From the sequence record PQ850623.1: a DNA stretch of 64,000 bases. One strand, given 5' to 3'. The notes below the pieces were generated by a model. The model was given only the letters and a program-made list of their open reading frames with translations. It made no database searches and had not been told where the DNA came from. Made by a program: the position numbers and the translations under genes. This DNA is from Escherichia phage RudolfBernhard_Bas96. Of this stretch, positions 24,658-28,477 are shown one piece after another (the first letter of the stretch is position 1; every line of letters starts with the position of its first letter).

Positions 24658-24948
24658 CTTCTTAACTACAAGAATTTTTCGATCAGTTTTGATTACATAA
24701 TCAATATTGTTGGCTTCAAAATGAATATCTACAAAATCAGCGTGTACACTTTGATAAGTACCATTGTTTCTACGAATACCTAACTTCTTACAGAGAACCA
24801 TTGCAATTCCTGTATCTGGTACAGCAATCCAATTGTTACCATCAATTTGTACATCACAACCAAAGGTTAAACGATGCCTTGCCTTACGGTGTACATGCAA
24901 TCCACCAATACGCTTTGGTATAAGCTGCCCTTTCTTAAAGAGTTCCAT
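24655..24948 (-). CDS. Hypothetical protein
   Basis: 97-aa ORF, last gene of the leftward unit. Confidence 0.4.
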   Translation of the reverse strand: MELFKKGQLIPKRIGGLHVHRKARHRLTFGCDVQIDGNNWIAVPDTGIAMVLCKKLGIRRNNGTYQSVHADFVDIHFEANNIDYVIKTDRKILVVKK

Positions 24949-26161: not shown

Positions 26162-26410
26162 TTAGTACTATTTACCCATAGCTGGGAGGCTTGTATGAAC
26201 TTTATGAGTACCAGGTTCAGGTACGCTTAACTGGTGTGCTACTTGGATTGATAGTCCACTCATATCGCTCAGGCTAGGATTTAAGGAGTTCCTATTCTCC
26301 AGCGAAATTCCCGTCGAGGGGAATAACAATACATTAGCAGCCACTGGACTGTCTTACCAGTGTTGTCTTTAGAGTGCTATGCAATCAGGACTATGTTACT
26401 GCTGAATGGG

Positions 26411-26495
26411 TGTCCACTACTGGATTTGAACCAGTGACCCCAGACACCTTGTTCTCTCGAAGCTTTCCTGTGCTCTACCACTGAGCTAAGTGGAC
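26411..26495 (-). tRNA. tRNA-like gene, about 85 nt, isotype unassigned
   Basis: Minus strand reads acceptor GTCCACT/AGTGGAC, canonical D-arm GCTC-AGTGGTA-GAGC and T-arm ACTGG-TTCAAAT-CCAGT; the 35 nt between them did not fold into a standard anticodon arm by eye. Confidence 0.45.
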
Positions 26496-26994
26496 ATAAT
26501 AGAATGAGCTGGGGCAGGATACCTACCCCATCCAACCAAGTTACTCTGTATCTGAAGAACTATATTAAGTAGTTCATTTTACAGCAATAAGTAATTAGCT
26601 ACTGCTTAACCAGGATGATTAGACGTGCTCATATTGGGTGAGTCATGCCAGGCTCTAACTGGCTCCTTCTTCGCAATCCTTACATACCCCTACATAATTA
26701 TTGCGTTAAGCTTTTTTGTTTAAGTTTAAGTGAAGGCGTTCTTGCTGACTCATAATTGGGTGGGCGTTTGACGAATGACTAGTTCGTTACTACCCGTTTG
26801 CCATAAGTACCTGGCGACTATGGTTTGAGATGGGAGTCCGAGTCCTGTACAGCCTTACCGTCTCCACATTGGCAGCGTATCTAGAATAGCACTTCCGGGT
26901 ACGGATTTAACTGTTACATCTCAAATATGGTAGGGGCGTCCAGAGGTTTCATCTGGTACTTACGCCGTCGTATTTACGACTTACCCCCATTGTT

Positions 26995-27075
26995 TGGTTG
27001 CAGGTGGAGGAGTTGAACCTCACTTCACATACAGATTGGGAAACCTGTAGCATAACCGTATGCTCACCCACAATA
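26995..27075 (-). tRNA. tRNA-like element (3' half convincing, 5' boundary uncertain)
   Basis: Minus strand ends ...GAGG-TTCAACT-CCTCC-ACCTGCA-A-CCA (T-arm, acceptor 3' strand, discriminator, encoded CCA); no complementary 5' acceptor found at the expected distance. Confidence 0.3.
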
Positions 27076-27200
27076 ATTCTTCCAATTCAGAGTAGCACTG
27101 TTGCAGTCGTCACTGCCCATAGGTGAGGACTCGAACCTCACAATACCGTATGGCTAACGTCGCTGAACCTTTTCGCGTTCTATGCAGTGCTACTTTGAAT

Positions 27201-27285
27201 TGGTTACCAGTGAAGGATTCGAACCTCCGGTTGGAGTCTATAGCTTACCGCAGCAGCCCTCCAATCTAGCGGTGTCACACTTAGT
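27201..27285 (-). tRNA. tRNA-like element (3' half convincing, 5' boundary uncertain)
   Basis: Minus strand ends GGAGG-TTCGAAT-CCTTC-ACTGGTA-A-CCA; the only perfect 5' acceptor complement (TACCAGT) lies 124 nt upstream. Confidence 0.3.
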
Positions 27286-27326
27286 CCAAACTTGAACATG
27301 CCAAGCCATCTCGTGCAACTGGTAAT

Positions 27327-27405
27327 TGGTTCCGGCGTCTGGACTCGAACCAGAACACTCATGCCGGGCACGACACTAGTACCTACACCGGAATAGTTGC
27401 CAGGG
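27327..27405 (-). tRNA. tRNA-like element (3' half convincing, 5' boundary uncertain)
   Basis: Minus strand ends TCTGG-TTCGAGT-CCAGA-CGCCGGA-A-CCA; nearest acceptor complement (TCCGGTG) gives only 66 nt. Confidence 0.3.
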
Positions 27406-28210
27406 ATTCCACCTGGCTCTATCTGTTTTTATAGTCACTCAGATATTGTCTGGACTTTGACCATCTGGGGATTCGAACCCTCATCTCGGTGGCCAACCGT
27501 GCATTTGCCTCATGCTACTCTGGTCATAGTTGGCCCCCGTTTCTAATACATGGACGGGGGAACTCCACGGTCGTTTGATAATCAGGACGACTCACTCCTG
27601 ACTGAGGTTACGCTGTTAGGCGACCATCAGATACGCTTCTTCGTTTGCATTTATGTTATTGGTTCGTTTCTAAAAAACCGCATAATCGCTACGAAAACTA
27701 TCGGAGAGTGTACTAACTCTGGGCCACGCTTTTGTGGACATCGGCCTACCTTCCACAGCTAATCAGCTAATACACTCACCGATAGCCCGTAATAGGGGGG
27801 AGGGGACGAATCCTCCCTTTATACCCTATATTGCATGTAAGACCTAACAATTCGATGTTGTAGACGGATAGGCTTATGCTTACCGGCATTAAACTCCCGC
27901 CCCCTTAGTGGGCTGGGTTAATTAGTATACTCAACATTGAGCAGTTAGTTTGATAAGGGATCTGAAGCCTTATCCCAAAGATACCAACCTTTGGGATATA
28001 GCCTAAGATTCAGAAATGGCCCCTATAGGAGAGGCCATTGATTAACCCGAATGTTGCTTTACATTTTCTGTGATAACCGGTTCTTAAAATAGTCTGTCTG
28101 ACGGATGGGGGGCCACCCCTAGCGTCAGTGCCATACGGCAAAGATTAAGTTAAGAAAGGTTATGATAGGAGTTCCTATCTCAAAGGATTCTGACAGAACC
28201 CTTCACGATA

Positions 28211-28477
28211 TTAACTACTCTTTTTCAATGCTTCAACTTCGCCATCTTTATACCAAGCATATGGTATTAAGATTTTGCAGCCTTCTGAATCAATGTGGAA
28301 TGCTTTGTTTACTTCAGCAGGTTCTCCACCCATGAAAGAACTAACCTTTCCATTGAGCCAGTGAATAGTAAATTTGTTCATATTAACCCCGGTTGAACCA
28401 ATGGACTGGGGAGAGTATTCCAATCCACTGGTTCGGTTGTTGTTATTCTGGCGGCTTGTCACCACCGTGTTTACCAC
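28211..28477 (-). CDS. Hypothetical protein
   Basis: 88-aa ORF, first gene left of the noncoding region. Confidence 0.4.
   Translation of the reverse strand: MVNTVVTSRQNNNNRTSGLEYSPQSIGSTGVNMNKFTIHWLNGKVSSFMGGEPAEVNKAFHIDSEGCKILIPYAWYKDGEVEALKKSS

Follow-up and report, generated by a model that had tools for sequence, protein, structure and literature searches.

The spacer between the replication genes and the tRNA-like cluster of a Gamaleyavirus (an N4-like coliphage) encodes, at 27785-27534 on the minus strand, an unannotated RNA that is similar to the message part of tmRNA and lacks the tRNA part. Members of its family turned up in 299 phage records, which represent six or more lineages. 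The window, i.e. the whole 64,000-nucleotide stretch of Escherichia phage RudolfBernhard_Bas96 (PQ850623.1) that was analysed, contains one member. We consider there to be an even chance that this RNA of about 250 nt, derived from the message part of tmRNA, docks on host tmRNA and offers its own tag template. The broader proposal, that a mobile RNA gene of at least six unrelated lineages reprograms host trans-translation by pairing with tmRNA and supplying a surrogate template in trans, is put forward more tentatively, just short of an even chance. The parts of the tmRNA-like RNA are the following, from 5' to 3'.

27771-27785 (-): W helix 5' strand CUAUCGGUGAGUGUA, pairing with 27698-27712
27722-27757 (-): H-type pseudoknot-like insert in the W helix, UGUGGA..GGCC..UCCACA..AAAAGCGU..GGCC
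27698-27712 (-): W helix 3' strand UACACUCUCCGAUAG, the last 5 nt of which overlap the start of the antisense arm
27668-27702 (-): antisense arm GAUAGUUUUCGUAGCGAUUAUGCGGUUUUUUAGAA, a shortened reverse complement of host tmRNA nt 65-107
27649-27669 (-): A-rich linker AAACGAACCAAUAACAUAAAU, with U at -5 and A at -4 of the resume codon
27616-27648 (-): tag-like frame, GCA AAC GAA GAA GCG UAU CUG AUG GUC GCC UAA, encoding ANEEAYLMVA*
27602-27630 (-): helix-5-like hairpin holding the last four codons, with UAA inside, between the outer stem strands
27570-27601 (-): first pseudoknot, with hairpin UCAGGA-GUGAGUCG-UCCUGA at 27582-27601, the loop GUCG(U) of which pairs with (A)CGAC at 27570-27574
27534-27569 (-): second pseudoknot, CGUGGA (27564-27569) with UCCAUG (27549-27554) and CCCCCG (27555-27560) with CGGGGG (27534-27539)

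The frame of the window, ANEEAYLMVA, comprises 10 codons and has no start codon (the tag of E. coli tmRNA is ANDENYALAA); an in-frame UAG is found 8 codons upstream, and nearly all of 123 copies have AUAAAU, or a sequence very similar to it, upstream of the frame. The 33 distinct versions present in these copies all have exactly 10 codons followed by a stop, and their resume codon is GCA throughout, except for a single GCU. Variation is concentrated at the third positions of codons 1-4, 9 and 10, codon 10 being GCN with all four bases in use, and the two other frames contain stops in 32 and 25 of the 33 versions. To judge by this pattern of variation, the tag frame behaves as a coding sequence. 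In E. coli tmRNA, A86 at -4 is the main frame-setting nucleotide, activity is destroyed by base-paired structure around the resume codon, and both pseudoknot 1 and the tag sequence are replaceable (PMC2481249). Sequence comparison indicates that the phage RNA has kept the features of resumption, namely U-5, A-4, GCA, the 10-codon frame, the stop in a helix-5-like hairpin and two pseudoknots.

Rfam models matched the element below their gathering thresholds, over the linker, the tag and the first pseudoknot. In the window, tmRNA_permuted scored 23.5 bits (threshold 47) and beta_tmRNA 16.7 bits (E = 0.019; threshold 84). Among unrelated phages, the best score was that of L006, with 31.9 bits against 47 (E = 7e-5 in a 421-nt search), while beta_tmRNA reached E values of 5e-4 to 7e-4; L003 and L005 matched too. 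The phage tag ANEDRFLMAA aligns with the betaproteobacterial consensus ANDEHFAMAA, and the spacing of the pseudoknot is equal.

The predicted helices were assessed in 59 diverse phage sequences. Overall, 93.2% of cells were paired, versus 35-48% when the partners were slid, double changes occurred at 16 of 21 pairs, and compensatory cells numbered 171, versus 45 ± 10 in shuffles (0 of 500 as high). The outer stem CUGA/UCAG of the helix-5-like hairpin was paired in 99.6% of cells, with compensatory changes at all 4 pairs (variants CUGG/CCAG, UGAU/AUCA and AAAG/CUUU). The stem of the first pseudoknot was paired in 98.6%, with double changes at 3 of 5 pairs, and its loop-downstream pairing in 89.4%, with double changes at 3 of 4 pairs (CCGA/UCGG, CCAG/CUGG, CCAA/UUGG and GUCG/CGAC). 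Both stems of the second pseudoknot covary in the major class, and the window-type class shows compensatory changes as well (CAUGGA/UCCGUG, CGUGGU/ACCAUG, GGAGU/ACUCU and ACCCCU/AGGGGU); for the two downstream pseudoknots, double changes were seen at 12 of 17 pairs. The RNA strand corresponds to the minus strand of the window because a U.G pair is present in 50 of the 59 sequences. An earlier note on this DNA, made from the letters alone, had suggested that the hairpins could belong to a structured noncoding RNA. This is borne out for 27534-27630, the stems of which are kept by compensatory changes in the 59 sequences, and for 27792-27990, which is conserved in Kuraviruses with some compensatory changes. 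The first hairpin of that note is the CCCCCG/CGGGGG stem of the second pseudoknot, i.e. one stem of a pseudoknot in a tmRNA-like RNA, which its author could not see.

Upstream of the frame, 14 of the 15 positions of the W helix are complementary, and the helix is formed in the minimum-energy fold. Equivalent W helices flank the element in other phages (consensus CAGGUAAGAGCAUU...AGUGCUCUUUCC). The insert at 27722-27757 is an optional and variable cassette: at locus L114, the equivalent position shows the compensatory change UGAGGA/UCCUCA, and Vi1-like phages of Klebsiella and Serratia share a 48-nt piece with 87.5% identity. It is missing from T1-like phages, in which a promoter (TTGACA-17-TAGATT) takes its position and abuts the arm. 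A strand exchange of the W helix, with the flanking strands swapping partners to form the standard tmRNA topology, was considered and abandoned because the T1-like copies have this promoter instead of an upstream cassette.

The arm of about 35 nt located 5' of the frame covers, in host tmRNA, the 3' strand of pseudoknot 1, U85/A86, the resume codon and tag codons 3-6. RNAduplex predicted 32 bp between the arm and nucleotides 65-66, 68-79, 85-91 and 97-107 of E. coli ssrA, including U85, A86, G90 and C91. The duplex energy was -33.1 kcal/mol, versus -22.2 ± 2.3 for shuffles (0 of 1000 as good), and was reached by 1 of 500 shuffled ssrA sequences. When the window arm was aligned to the reverse complement of ssrA, z was 5.8 and 1 of 2000 shuffles scored higher; the statistics for the window's own arm suggest complementarity with moderate strength. 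The arms of P22-like and T1-like phages gave z values of 8.8-12.1, and those of eight lineages were collinear with the reverse complement of ssrA 68-107 (z = 4.8-12.1); against the sense strand of ssrA, the arms of these lineages did no better than shuffles. Among 184 sliding windows over the 1.8-kb spacer, the arm was the only outlier and no other antisense match to ssrA was found, the next-best window scoring 21 versus 28 for the arm and a mean of 15. RNAcofold retained the intermolecular helix, with a dimer at -216.9 kcal/mol versus -210.0 for the RNAs apart, a gain of about 7 kcal/mol computed without pseudoknots. U-rich arms easily pair with the A-rich tmRNA. A likeness of module A (see below) to the reverse complement of ssrA 303-330, perceived by eye, was not supported.

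The first set of loci had been found with a pattern lying inside the arm, which inflated the apparent conservation of the latter; in a scan ascertained only on the second pseudoknot, no locus that extended far enough upstream lacked the arm or the tag. A minor class (L256, L275, L280, L282 and L299) keeps just the two outer blocks of the arm, and these arms would leave the resume codon of the host looped out rather than paired. We also considered pairing of the arm in cis with the phage tag codons, which amounted to only 4-7 bp and showed no covariation with GAA or GAU as codon 3. Since the arm does not covary with its own codon 3, its conserved partner is external. The target segment of ssrA is conserved over Enterobacterales, Vibrionaceae and Aeromonas, and its near invariance across ssrA from 31 genera leaves little to compare for a covariation between arm and host tmRNA. 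The arm of 'Aeromonas' phage pIS4-A (GCGC for GCGG) fits the Aeromonas target no better than the enterobacterial one, and vice versa.

We considered the possibility that the RNA is only an antisense inhibitor or sponge, the arm of which blocks or destabilises host tmRNA and ends tagging or all trans-translation, whereas the frame and the pseudoknots would be untranslated mimicry of tmRNA, binding for example S1, SmpB or RNase R. The complementarity of the arm would serve inhibition and docking alike, and a paired resume region inactivates E. coli tmRNA (PMC2481249). There is also a precedent in mycobacteriophage DS6A, which makes a molecule consisting only of the tRNA-like domain (TLD), a similar molecule being inhibitory to tmRNA in E. 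coli (PMC4131195, PMC11915505). Yet, mimicry at the RNA level does not predict a coding signature with degenerate third positions, a fixed length of 10 codons, an absence of in-frame stops and closed alternative frames, nor do the preserved A at -4 and U at -5, which set the frame, agree with it. Inhibition alone is in our opinion unlikely.

A tRNA-like domain was looked for in several ways. ARAGORN, applied to the window and to 66 related loci, reported no tmRNA, and a domain with an acceptor stem bearing G3.U70, a T-arm and a CCA end was absent from about 150 copies. A pattern combining a T-arm with NNNNUCC-ACCA matched, near the copies, only ordinary tRNA-Met genes, which have A3-U70. Among the loci examined, we found neither a 5' acceptor strand nor a universally linked acceptor piece, and the HK620 copy lies in a late leader without any tRNA. 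As the phage RNA has no tRNA-like domain, it cannot enter a stalled ribosome by itself. We also considered whether the GGGAGG/CCUCCC hairpin could be a permuted acceptor piece or an acceptor/T-arm minihelix, and rejected this: its loop has 8 nt, and both G3.U70 and a CCA are missing. The UUCG in its loop is not conserved (CUCG in ECBP1), and it belongs to module A, which also occurs in Kuraviruses without the tag module.

An autonomous split tmRNA would account for this in another way: the RNA would be the coding piece of a phage two-piece tmRNA, with an acceptor piece provided by the neighbouring elements 27458-27526 or 26998-27073, or by T-arm-bearing 'W' cassettes in other phages, and its likeness to the reverse complement of ssrA would be incidental. 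The best Rfam resemblance is to permuted, two-piece models, the RNA is immediately followed, in the window as at many other loci, by tRNA-like elements with good T-loops, and the element 26998-27073 has both a tmRNA-like T-loop (GGUUCAACUCC) and an encoded CCA. Complete phage-encoded two-piece tmRNAs are reported to exist (PMC9004378). This explanation is nevertheless quite improbable, in view of the absence of G3.U70 from the candidates inspected (including 27458-27526 and 26998-27073; the 'tRNA-Ala' of ECBP1 has U3-A70) and of a universally linked tRNA-like element, HK620 having none and T1-like phages only ordinary tRNA-Gly/Arg/Met. Furthermore, the copies with a promoter abutting the arm have no 5' acceptor strand ahead of it, and the likeness of the arm to the reverse complement of ssrA is far above that of shuffles.

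In the docking model that we favour, the RNA would come free from a long non-coding transcript, of which tRNA-like elements are also a part, and its arm would anneal to host tmRNA. Annealing would unfold the 3' half of host pseudoknot 1 and sequester U85/A86, the first two bases of the resume codon and tag codons 3-6, the single-stranded resume region of the phage RNA then being placed 9-22 nt away, roughly at the position of that of the host. Ribosomes rescued by the Ala-tmRNA-SmpB of the host would resume on the phage template, and the nascent chains would end in ...A-ANEEAYLMVA (...LMAA or ...LAVA with other phages) rather than in ...AANDENYALAA. A phage-specified tag ending in ...LMAA, ...LAVA or ...LMVA would thus replace the ClpXP degron ...ALAA. 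Annealing, the change of template and what becomes of the re-tagged proteins are all inferred. The arm may fail to reach its target in the cell because of host pseudoknot 1 and of bound SmpB or S1. To our knowledge, a message domain delivered purely in trans via an antisense helix is without precedent; in natural two-piece tmRNA, the coding piece contributes the 5' acceptor strand too.

The hairpin region as a whole is read on the minus strand, is flanked by replication genes and the tRNA-like cluster, and is modular, consisting of the tmRNA-like RNA (27785-27534(-)), module A (27792-27990(-)) and a stretch called R1 (27990-28210(-)). The four inverted repeats described earlier were all located at essentially the same coordinates.

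27534-27540 / 27554-27560: hairpin 1, CCCCCGT / ACGGGGG, 7 bp, perfect
27798-27803 / 27812-27817: hairpin 2, GGGAGG / CCTCCC, 6 bp, perfect
27792-27797 / 27824-27829: extension of hairpin 2, ATAGGG / CCCTAT
27960-27980 / 27989-28009: hairpin 3, 21-nt arms, 81% complementary, with a perfect 10-bp core TATCCCAAAG / CTTTGGGATA
28015-28024 / 28030-28039: hairpin 4, AATGGCCCCT / AGAGGCCATT, 90% complementary
28098-28128, 28164-28179, 27582-27601 and 27733-27757: additional hairpins

The ATGGCC/GGCCAT core of hairpin 4 is perfect, as had been stated, and the longer stem has one mismatch. The density of hairpins is above chance: the minus strand of the 681-nt region folds at -236.8 kcal/mol, versus -188.6 ± 6.6 for dinucleotide shuffles (z = -7.3; 0 of 20 shuffles folding as well), and the plus strand has a z of -8.0. 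The statement that the region has no plausible ORF is right in substance, as ORFs reach 70 aa and the longest, 27550-27762(+), is not conserved, being broken by stops or frameshifts in relatives. The region also adjoins a tRNA-like cluster, as noted, with T-loop-like motifs on the minus strand from about 27479 on to about 26411. Degenerate tRNAs, which had been suspected within 27540-28210, were not detected there by ARAGORN or as Rfam tRNA-like matches at E ≤ 10; such matches fall outside the region, at 26411-26495 and 26998-27073. A replication or packaging element, also suggested, found no support: direct repeats and iterons are absent from the region and the base composition is unremarkable, with a GC content of 0.46-0.48 similar to that of the flanks. 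Scans for an origin, a pac site, a promoter or a terminator were negative on the transcribed strand of the region. The remaining modules are the following.

27792-27990 (-): module A, a separate conserved structured RNA
27952-27974 (-): first hairpin of module A, GAUAAGG/CCUUAUC, with two compensatory pairs
27894-27917 (-): central GC-rich hairpin of module A
27831-27863 (-): invariant block of module A, CUACA..UGUUAGGUCUUACAUGCAA
27792-27829 (-): terminal hairpin of module A, AUAGGG-UAUAAA-GGGAGG..CCUCCC-CCCUAU, equivalent to hairpin 2
27991-28210 (-): R1, a genus-specific hairpin stretch directly after the stop codon of ORF 28211-28477(-)
28164-28179, 28098-28128, 28015-28039 (hairpin 4) and 27971-27998 (hairpin 3) (-): hairpins of R1

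The conserved blocks of module A are 77-82% identical in Kuraviruses, for example phiEco32; its terminal hairpin does not vary, and in Kuraviruses a U-rich tail comes after it. R1 is 93-98% identical among Gamaleyaviruses, more than the neighbouring modules. The initial ~45 nt of R1 are a duplicate of the beginning of module A in its phiEco32 form, and its hairpin at 27971-27998 overlaps the start of module A. On the transcribed strand of R1, we found no sigma-70 promoter or intrinsic terminator. Module A and R1 are further structured and conserved RNA on the same transcript as the tmRNA-like RNA.

This arrangement could also be that of a scaffold for processing or stability, or of a relic. 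Hairpins would punctuate a transcript resembling a tRNA precursor, as RNase sites, 3'-end protection or termination signals, and the tmRNA-like piece would be a fossil of recombination with ssrA. The region is modular and mosaic, lies between genes and a tRNA-like array, and has in Kuraviruses a terminator-like hairpin at the end of module A. Moreover, the tmRNA-like module is dispensable, since it is missing from some Gamaleyaviruses (SP5M and pSb-1). The preservation of an open 10-codon frame through 33 distinct versions, of compensatory changes in five helices and of an unpaired arm over six phage lineages and 299 genomes is, however, incompatible with a fossil, and we regard a scaffold or relic as very improbable. 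It is hardly credible that the region is a replication origin, a packaging site, a set of hairpin promoters for a phage polymerase or a group of small protein genes, despite its dense inverted repeats and the 'hypothetical proteins' annotated over it in several relatives, since it has no direct repeats or anomaly of composition, its 70-aa ORF is not conserved, its hairpin loops have 2, 5, 8 and 13 nt and not the 3 nt (on a 5-7 bp stem) of the DNA hairpin promoters used by the N4-type virion RNA polymerase, covariation including G.U pairs fixes the RNA strand, and phages whose replication and packaging systems are unrelated carry the same modules.

The conserved pieces present in unrelated phages are always in the transcribed orientation, beside tRNA genes or in a late leader, the latter being the location of the lambdoid and P22-like prophage copies. 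The RNA family was found in 136 of 5,426 complete E. coli genomes (2.5%), as prophage copies of the tag module only, and module A and R1 had no match in these genomes, in a search that is blind to short antisense seeds. The element occurs in six different genomic contexts without a conserved protein neighbour; it therefore probably works with host factors. Neither a tmRNA-like phage RNA devoid of the TLD nor an antisense RNA directed against tmRNA was described in the freely accessible full-text literature that our searches covered.

If the proposed reprogramming is correct, virus and host would each contribute one molecule to a natural two-molecule tmRNA, and this would be a new way for a virus to take over the quality control of translation. 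Docking would make this the first virus known to rewrite ribosome-rescue tagging rather than to encode its own tmRNA, and the first natural tmRNA message domain acting in trans on a complete tmRNA. It would also provide a handle on the choice of the resume codon by the ribosome, on how much of the pseudoknot ring is needed and on why several phages depend on host tmRNA, for which a plaque assay is in use (PMC2481249), and infected cells and lysogens would be predicted to contain C-terminal tags of a new class. Whatever the mechanism, about 300 sequenced phages of Escherichia, Klebsiella, Salmonella, Shigella, Serratia and relatives, many of them therapeutic candidates, contain an unannotated structured RNA gene with a translated-looking 10-codon frame. 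Annotation pipelines miss this gene because they look for the tRNA-like domain.

The phage RNA shares with tmRNA (SsrA; RF00023) a start-less frame opening with GCA AAC GA(N), which encodes AN(D/E)(D/E/N)... and ends with hydrophobic residues and Ala, as well as A at -4, U at -5, a stop inside the following hairpin and H-type pseudoknots thereafter. It differs in lacking the tRNA-like domain, in having only two downstream pseudoknots, and in its scores (23.5-31.9 bits), which are far below the gathering threshold of 47. Furthermore, pseudoknot 1 of tmRNA is located about 12 nt upstream of the resume codon, whereas an unpaired antisense arm occupies this place in the phage RNA; the pseudoknot-like insert at 27722-27757 sits about 73 nt upstream of the resume codon in the window.

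Two-piece tmRNA (RF04321 and RF01850; alpha- and betaproteobacteria, cyanobacteria) likewise splits tRNA and message between two base-paired RNAs, and the phage element is closest to the betaproteobacterial coding piece in its linker, tag and first pseudoknot. A two-piece tmRNA is also reported from a marine methylophage (PMC9004378). In two-piece tmRNA, one precursor yields both pieces, and their pairing forms the tRNA-like domain; the phage RNA is instead proposed to pair with a complete one-piece tmRNA, that of the host, through an antisense helix over the message region of the latter.

Phage genes acting on ribosome rescue include the tmRNAs of mycobacteriophages Bxz1, Cali and Catera and of Bacillus phage G, and the RNA of DS6A. 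In a 2014 survey of 543 RefSeq bacterial viruses, ssrA was found only in mycobacteriophages (PMC4131195). DS6A carries only one half of tmRNA, the tRNA-like one (PMC4131195, PMC11915505). The element described here differs from all of these in being the opposite half, together with an antisense arm. Like the species 1 and 2 RNAs of T4, which are stable RNAs embedded in a phage tRNA cluster, it is a structured non-tRNA RNA co-transcribed with phage tRNA genes and presumably freed by tRNA-processing enzymes; the T4 RNAs, unlike this one, have no tag frame.

Prophages of enterobacteria encode anti-sRNAs such as AgvB and AsxR of EHEC prophages. The phage RNA resembles such antisense RNAs in being phage-encoded and in having a conserved single-stranded segment complementary to an abundant host RNA; its complementarity is extended, statistically supported and conserved in homologues, and the pairing is predicted. 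It differs from AgvB and AsxR in its proposed target, which is tmRNA rather than an Hfq-dependent sRNA or an mRNA, and in the fusion of its antisense segment to a translatable tag template and pseudoknots.

The phage is a Gamaleyavirus (G7C/N4-like, Schitoviridae; host E. coli), and over the 900 bases around the hairpin-dense stretch at about 27540-28210 it shares 93% identity with Escherichia phage KKP 3715; identity with PhAPEC7 is 96% over the part in common. Gene order, as taken from related records, places the end of the plus-strand giant virion RNA polymerase gene near 24,900; from there to beyond 31,000 all genes are on the minus strand (primase, AAA ATPase, RuvC-like resolvase, small ORFs). 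On this strand the stretch starts directly after the stop codon of ORF 28211-28477 and is followed 3' by the tRNA-like array (about 27530-26400) that the earlier note had seen adjoining it, then by further small ORFs. The four inverted repeats reported in that note were all found where it had placed them, together with several additional ones, and the 681-nt stretch had a far more stable fold than its dinucleotide shuffles (minus strand z = -7.3, plus strand z = -8.0). The claim that there is no plausible ORF held in substance: ORFs of up to 70 aa are present, and the longest, 27550-27762(+), is broken by stops or frameshifts in relatives. The region contained no direct repeats, its transcribed strand neither a sigma-70 promoter nor an intrinsic terminator, and its base composition was ordinary. 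The positions of the repeats, the fold z-scores and the checks of ORFs, repeats, promoters and composition confirmed the initial observation. The features are as follows.

27991-28210, minus strand: R1, which holds hairpin 4 of the earlier note and part of hairpin 3
27792-27990, minus strand: module A, a separate unit
27785-27534, minus strand: tag RNA (tag module, lower module), tmRNA-like
27702-27668, minus strand: arm, 5' of the tag frame, antisense to host tmRNA (ssrA)
About 27530-26400, minus strand: tRNA-like array

In a sensitive DNA search, 336 phage records contained parts of the region at 75-87% identity; many were phages unrelated to the N4-like group, and the pieces were almost never annotated. 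The modules are independent, since the Gamaleyaviruses SP5M and pSb-1 have the upper part only and Klebsiella phage JZBo1 the lower part only; module A (about 27791-27980) also occurs in Kuraviruses (phiEco32 group). By this comparison, the region is a mosaic of apparently mobile RNA modules. The lower-module piece at about 27597-27722 was found in P22-like HK620, in T1-like phages of Klebsiella, Escherichia and Salmonella, in Vi1-like Ackermannviridae of Serratia and Klebsiella, in Salmonella FSL SP-058/076 and in others. At every locus inspected the match was non-coding and oriented as local transcription: in HK620 it is flanked by the late promoter/qut site and the late terminator, in Serratia phiMAM1 it is within a tRNA cluster, and in Klebsiella VLCpiS13a and in pIS4-A it is upstream of tRNA genes; module A of phiEco32 occupies a gap of 290 nt downstream of a tRNA. 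Two T1-like phages recorded as Aeromonas (L128, pIS4-A) and Vibrio (pYD38-A, H160) phages also carry the tag module; their versions are nearly identical to the enterobacterial T1-like versions, and pIS4-A has the tag ANEEMYLAVA, the stop UAG and GCGC instead of GCGG in the arm. The arm-plus-tag core (27534-27702) matched 299 phage records (hosts: Klebsiella 99, Salmonella 91, Escherichia 65, Shigella 11, Serratia 10, and also Cronobacter, Enterobacter and Erwinia), almost none with an annotated feature under the match. It was also present in prophages of 136 of 5,426 complete E. coli genomes, with no feature annotated under any of the matches listed (H105-H143); carriers include several Shiga-toxin-producing strains (5.6-5.8 Mb). 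The contexts of the tag module differed wholly between lineages, and no protein neighbour was common to those compared.

The Rfam scan proposed in the earlier note, run permissively, gave sub-threshold matches to tmRNA models within the region, at 27569-27777(-) (permuted, 23.5 bits, E = 0.039; betaproteobacterial, E = 0.019). The same models matched the homologous stretch in three unrelated phages (best match 31.9 bits, E = 7e-5, 421-nt search); all matches were under the gathering thresholds, and the alignments spanned the linker, the tag frame and the next pseudoknot. The window frame reads AUAAAU GCA AAC GAA GAA GCG UAU CUG AUG GUC GCC UAA, i.e. ANEEAYLMVA, as compared with ANDENYALAA in E. 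coli tmRNA. A pattern scan of IMG/VR, with a pattern inside the arm, returned at least 120 loci, and a tag frame of this type was present in every locus among the matches listed, most often ANDDVVLMAA (47 copies), ANEEMYLAVA (28), ANDEQFLAVA (16) and ANDDLMLMAA (13). The 123 copies compared represented 33 distinct nucleotide versions, all with exactly ten codons and a stop (UAA 31, UAG 1, UGA 1); variation was mostly in third positions, at codons 1-4, 9 and 10, codon 10 being GCN with C, U and G at near-equal frequency. The other two frames contained stops in 32 and 25 of the 33 versions, and nearly all 123 copies had U at -5 and A at -4. The tag frame has no start codon, and eight codons 5' of it there is an in-frame UAG. 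The resume frame of E. coli tmRNA is set mainly by A86 (-4), next to a highly conserved U85 (PMC2481249). These features point to a putatively translated tmRNA-type tag frame and set it apart from ordinary ORFs and from RNA whose role is structural alone.

Structured ncRNA, one of the possibilities raised at the outset, was borne out for the lower module by compensatory changes. In an alignment of 59 diverse copies (A3), five helices were picked by eye and then scored: the outer stem of a hairpin that encloses the stop codon and the four codons before it; a second hairpin immediately 3' of the first; the pairing of the loop of this second hairpin with a downstream strand, forming a first pseudoknot; and both stems of a second pseudoknot. 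Standard pairs filled 93.2% of cells, versus 35-48% with partners slid by 1-3 columns, 16 of 21 pairs changed on both sides, and 171 cells were compensatory, versus 45 +/- 10 after shuffling (0/500 shuffles as high). These covariation counts strongly back the five predicted helices. One pair is U.G in 50 of the 59 sequences and would be A.C on the opposite strand, indicating that the RNA is the window minus strand. In a minority class, to which the window copy belongs, the second pseudoknot is a different one (CGUGGA/UCCAUG and CCCCCG/CGGGGG, 27569-27534), and its stems show compensatory changes within the class; the CCCCCG/CGGGGG stem is hairpin 1 of the earlier note.

The most conserved part of the element is directly 5' of the tag frame and has no pairing partner within the phage RNA. 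Comparison with the annotated E. coli ssrA gene indicated that this arm is a shortened reverse complement of host tmRNA. Sixteen diverse phage cores, when aligned with the reverse complement of ssrA 56-112, had one common set of collinear blocks: UAGUUUUCGU pairs with ssrA ACGAAAACUA (tag codons 3-6), GCGA(C/U) with GUCGC (which contains the resume-codon bases G90 and C91), U(U/A)UGCGG with CCGCAAA (3' strand of pseudoknot 1) and UUUUUA with UAAAAA. Local alignment scores were above shuffles against the reverse complement (z 12.1 for L008, 11.4 for the P22-like arm L010, 8.8 for the T1-like L006, 5.8 for the window and 4.8 for the Ackermannviridae arm L005) and equal to the shuffle mean against the sense strand; statistical support for the window's own arm is only moderate. 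RNAduplex predicted 32 bp between the window arm (27702-27668) and ssrA 65-66, 68-79, 85-91 and 97-107, at -33.1 kcal/mol versus -22.2 +/- 2.3 for shuffles (0/1000 as good), and the intermolecular helix was retained when the 261-nt phage RNA was co-folded with full ssrA (-216.9 versus -210.0 kcal/mol apart). The arm was the only ssrA-antisense outlier in 184 sliding windows over the whole 1.8-kb spacer (score 28; mean 15.1 +/- 2.7; next best 21). Its sequence showed no covariation with codon 3 of the phage tag (GAA or GAU), which argues that its constraint is external. Since the pattern of the first scan lay inside the arm, ascertainment was repeated on the second pseudoknot alone: the GUUUUCGU block and the tag frame were present in 122/122 loci with enough upstream sequence, and a small class had the two outer arm blocks only. 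Variant tag RNAs without the GCGAC block (L256, L275, L280, L282, L299) belong to a class whose tags end in ...LAAA (ANDDLMLAAA, ANDDYKLAAA), nearer to the canonical ALAA. The ssrA target segment is nearly invariant in Enterobacterales, Vibrionaceae and Aeromonas; this fits the conservation of the arm, yet gives no power to a test of arm-host covariation.

These comparisons establish, at the sequence level, a conserved and structured predicted RNA with a coding-type tmRNA tag frame and without a tRNA-like domain, and a conserved arm with predicted complementarity to the frame-setting nucleotides, resume codon and first tag codons of ssrA. We hypothesized that the phage RNA docks on host tmRNA and replaces its tag template (template switch), a model to which we give an even chance of being right. 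The arm would anneal to host tmRNA, opening the 3' half of pseudoknot 1 and burying U85/A86 and the resume codon; tmRNA is reported to lose its activity when the resume region is base-paired (PMC2481249). The phage RNA would leave the duplex on its pseudoknot-1 side as a single-stranded linker of 9-22 nt, equipped with a U(-5), an A(-4) and a GCA; in host tmRNA, 12 nt lead from pseudoknot 1 to the resume codon (PMC2481249). A ribosome rescued by host Ala-tmRNA-SmpB would then meet the phage template, not the host's. Pseudoknot 1 and the tag sequence of E. coli tmRNA are each individually replaceable (PMC2481249), and natural two-piece tmRNAs have their tRNA and message functions on separate paired molecules (PMC11915505). 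The minority class with outer arm blocks only would leave the host resume codon unmasked. If the docking model is true, C-termini would become ...LMVA, ...LMAA or ...LAVA, not ...ALAA. In the ssrA tag, the terminal LAA is read by ClpX and AAND..Y by SspB; judged by their residues, the phage tags largely retain the SspB-type part and the ClpX-type part is changed. To our knowledge, a message domain loaded in trans via an antisense helix is without precedent. The main rival, which we consider unlikely, is an untranslated RNA that acts as antisense inhibitor or sponge; it would account for the arm but leaves the coding signature unexplained.

tmRNA requires an alanine-charged tRNA-like domain. 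ARAGORN, run for standard and permuted tmRNAs, found none in the window or in 66 related loci, and the HK620 leader contained no tRNA-like element. In T1-like phages, only about 8 nt separate the conserved core from the end of a good sigma-70 promoter (TTGACA, 17 nt, TAGATT), making a 5' acceptor strand impossible in these copies. This promoter (L006 1467-1495; conserved in the homologous T1-like loci, among them L011, L022, L028 and L042) is immediately 5' of the arm and delimits a small non-coding operon that comprises the tag RNA, W cassettes and tRNA-Arg/Gly/Met. A search for a T-arm plus an alanine-type acceptor strand returned only normal tRNA-Met genes, with A3-U70. A split phage tmRNA, with a neighbouring tRNA-like RNA as acceptor piece, is more doubtful still than the inhibitor, no partner being universally linked or having alanine identity.

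ARAGORN found no tRNA in the whole window. The only tRNA accepted by Rfam, 26411-26495(-) (54.4 bits), has 13 extra anticodon-loop bases (24 nt versus the model's 11); the insert motif, CAGGA(A/G)AGCUUCG(A/G)(A/G)AGAACAAGGUG(U/C)CUG, occurs again in a tRNA of locus L108 and in the late leader of HK620 (L003 ~1792-1822), where it is not part of a tRNA. About six tRNA-like elements, with good T-loops near 27479, 27351, 27225, 27137 and 27019, lie in 26400-27530(-), which gives the impression of a degenerate or non-canonical tRNA array; relatives annotate some members as tRNA-Cys(ACA), tRNA-Ile(AAU), tRNA-Ala(CGC) or 'tRNA-other'. The element at 26998-27073(-) scored 31.7 bits with the Rfam tRNA-Sec model, below threshold. 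Its T-loop is that of E. coli tmRNA (GGUUCAACUCC), its 3' CCA is encoded, and its acceptor stem of 9 bp has U.G and G.U pairs; lacking G3.U70, the element was rejected as a tmRNA-type acceptor piece. W cassettes lie 5' or 3' of the tag module, several per locus (L003 1425-1790; L008, L010, L014, L096). A conserved long helix, CAACAGGUAAGAGCAUU ... AGUGCUCUUUCCGUUGUGGUG, surrounds variable inserts, often a small hairpin plus a T-arm-like GGUUCGAAUCC stem-loop. The cassettes have the appearance of tRNA-like units that were shuffled and whose leader and trailer are base-paired.

Module A fills a gap between small ORFs in Kuraviruses. One of its hairpins carries two compensatory pairs (GAUAAGG/CCUUAUC in the window versus GAUAGGA/UCCUAUC), its central GC hairpin is variable and a 30-nt block is invariant. 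The terminal hairpin (hairpin 2 of the earlier note) is also invariant and is followed in Kuraviruses by a U-rich tail, which suggests a terminator or 3'-end structure. Module A had no antisense match to ssrA and no copy in the E. coli genomes searched. R1 is 93-98% identical among Gamaleyaviruses, and its first 45 nt duplicate the start of module A; this phiEco32-type start (UAAUAUCGUGAAGG...CCUUUGAGAUAGGA) is found twice in the window, at 28160-28205 and 27950-27990 (-), with a ~190-nt R1 stretch in between. The two copies suggest an insertion or partial duplication. Hairpin 3 and the conserved hairpin of module A need the same strand, 27971-27980, so the former may be an alternative structure.

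When 543 RefSeq bacterial viruses were surveyed in 2014 with tmRNA-specific tools, mycobacteriophages were the only ones with ssrA (PMC4131195), and the 2025 update of the tmRNA database makes no mention of a form of this kind lacking the tRNA-like domain (PMC11915505). The open full-text literature searched described neither a phage RNA that resembles tmRNA but lacks the tRNA-like domain nor an antisense RNA directed at tmRNA. The domain that defines tmRNA is absent from the phage element, which places it outside that family, and no other described family matches it. Its layout, a hairpin-enclosed stop codon followed by H-type pseudoknots, is the same as that of helix 5 and pseudoknots 2-4 of tmRNA. 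It is a reasonable inference that the tag RNA descended from a tmRNA coding piece, and the arm must have been acquired or reshaped toward enterobacterial ssrA. The linker, tag and first pseudoknot align best with the betaproteobacterial two-piece tmRNA, in which the pseudoknot spacing is equal and the consensus tag is ANDEHFAMAA, as compared with ANEDRFLMAA in phage.
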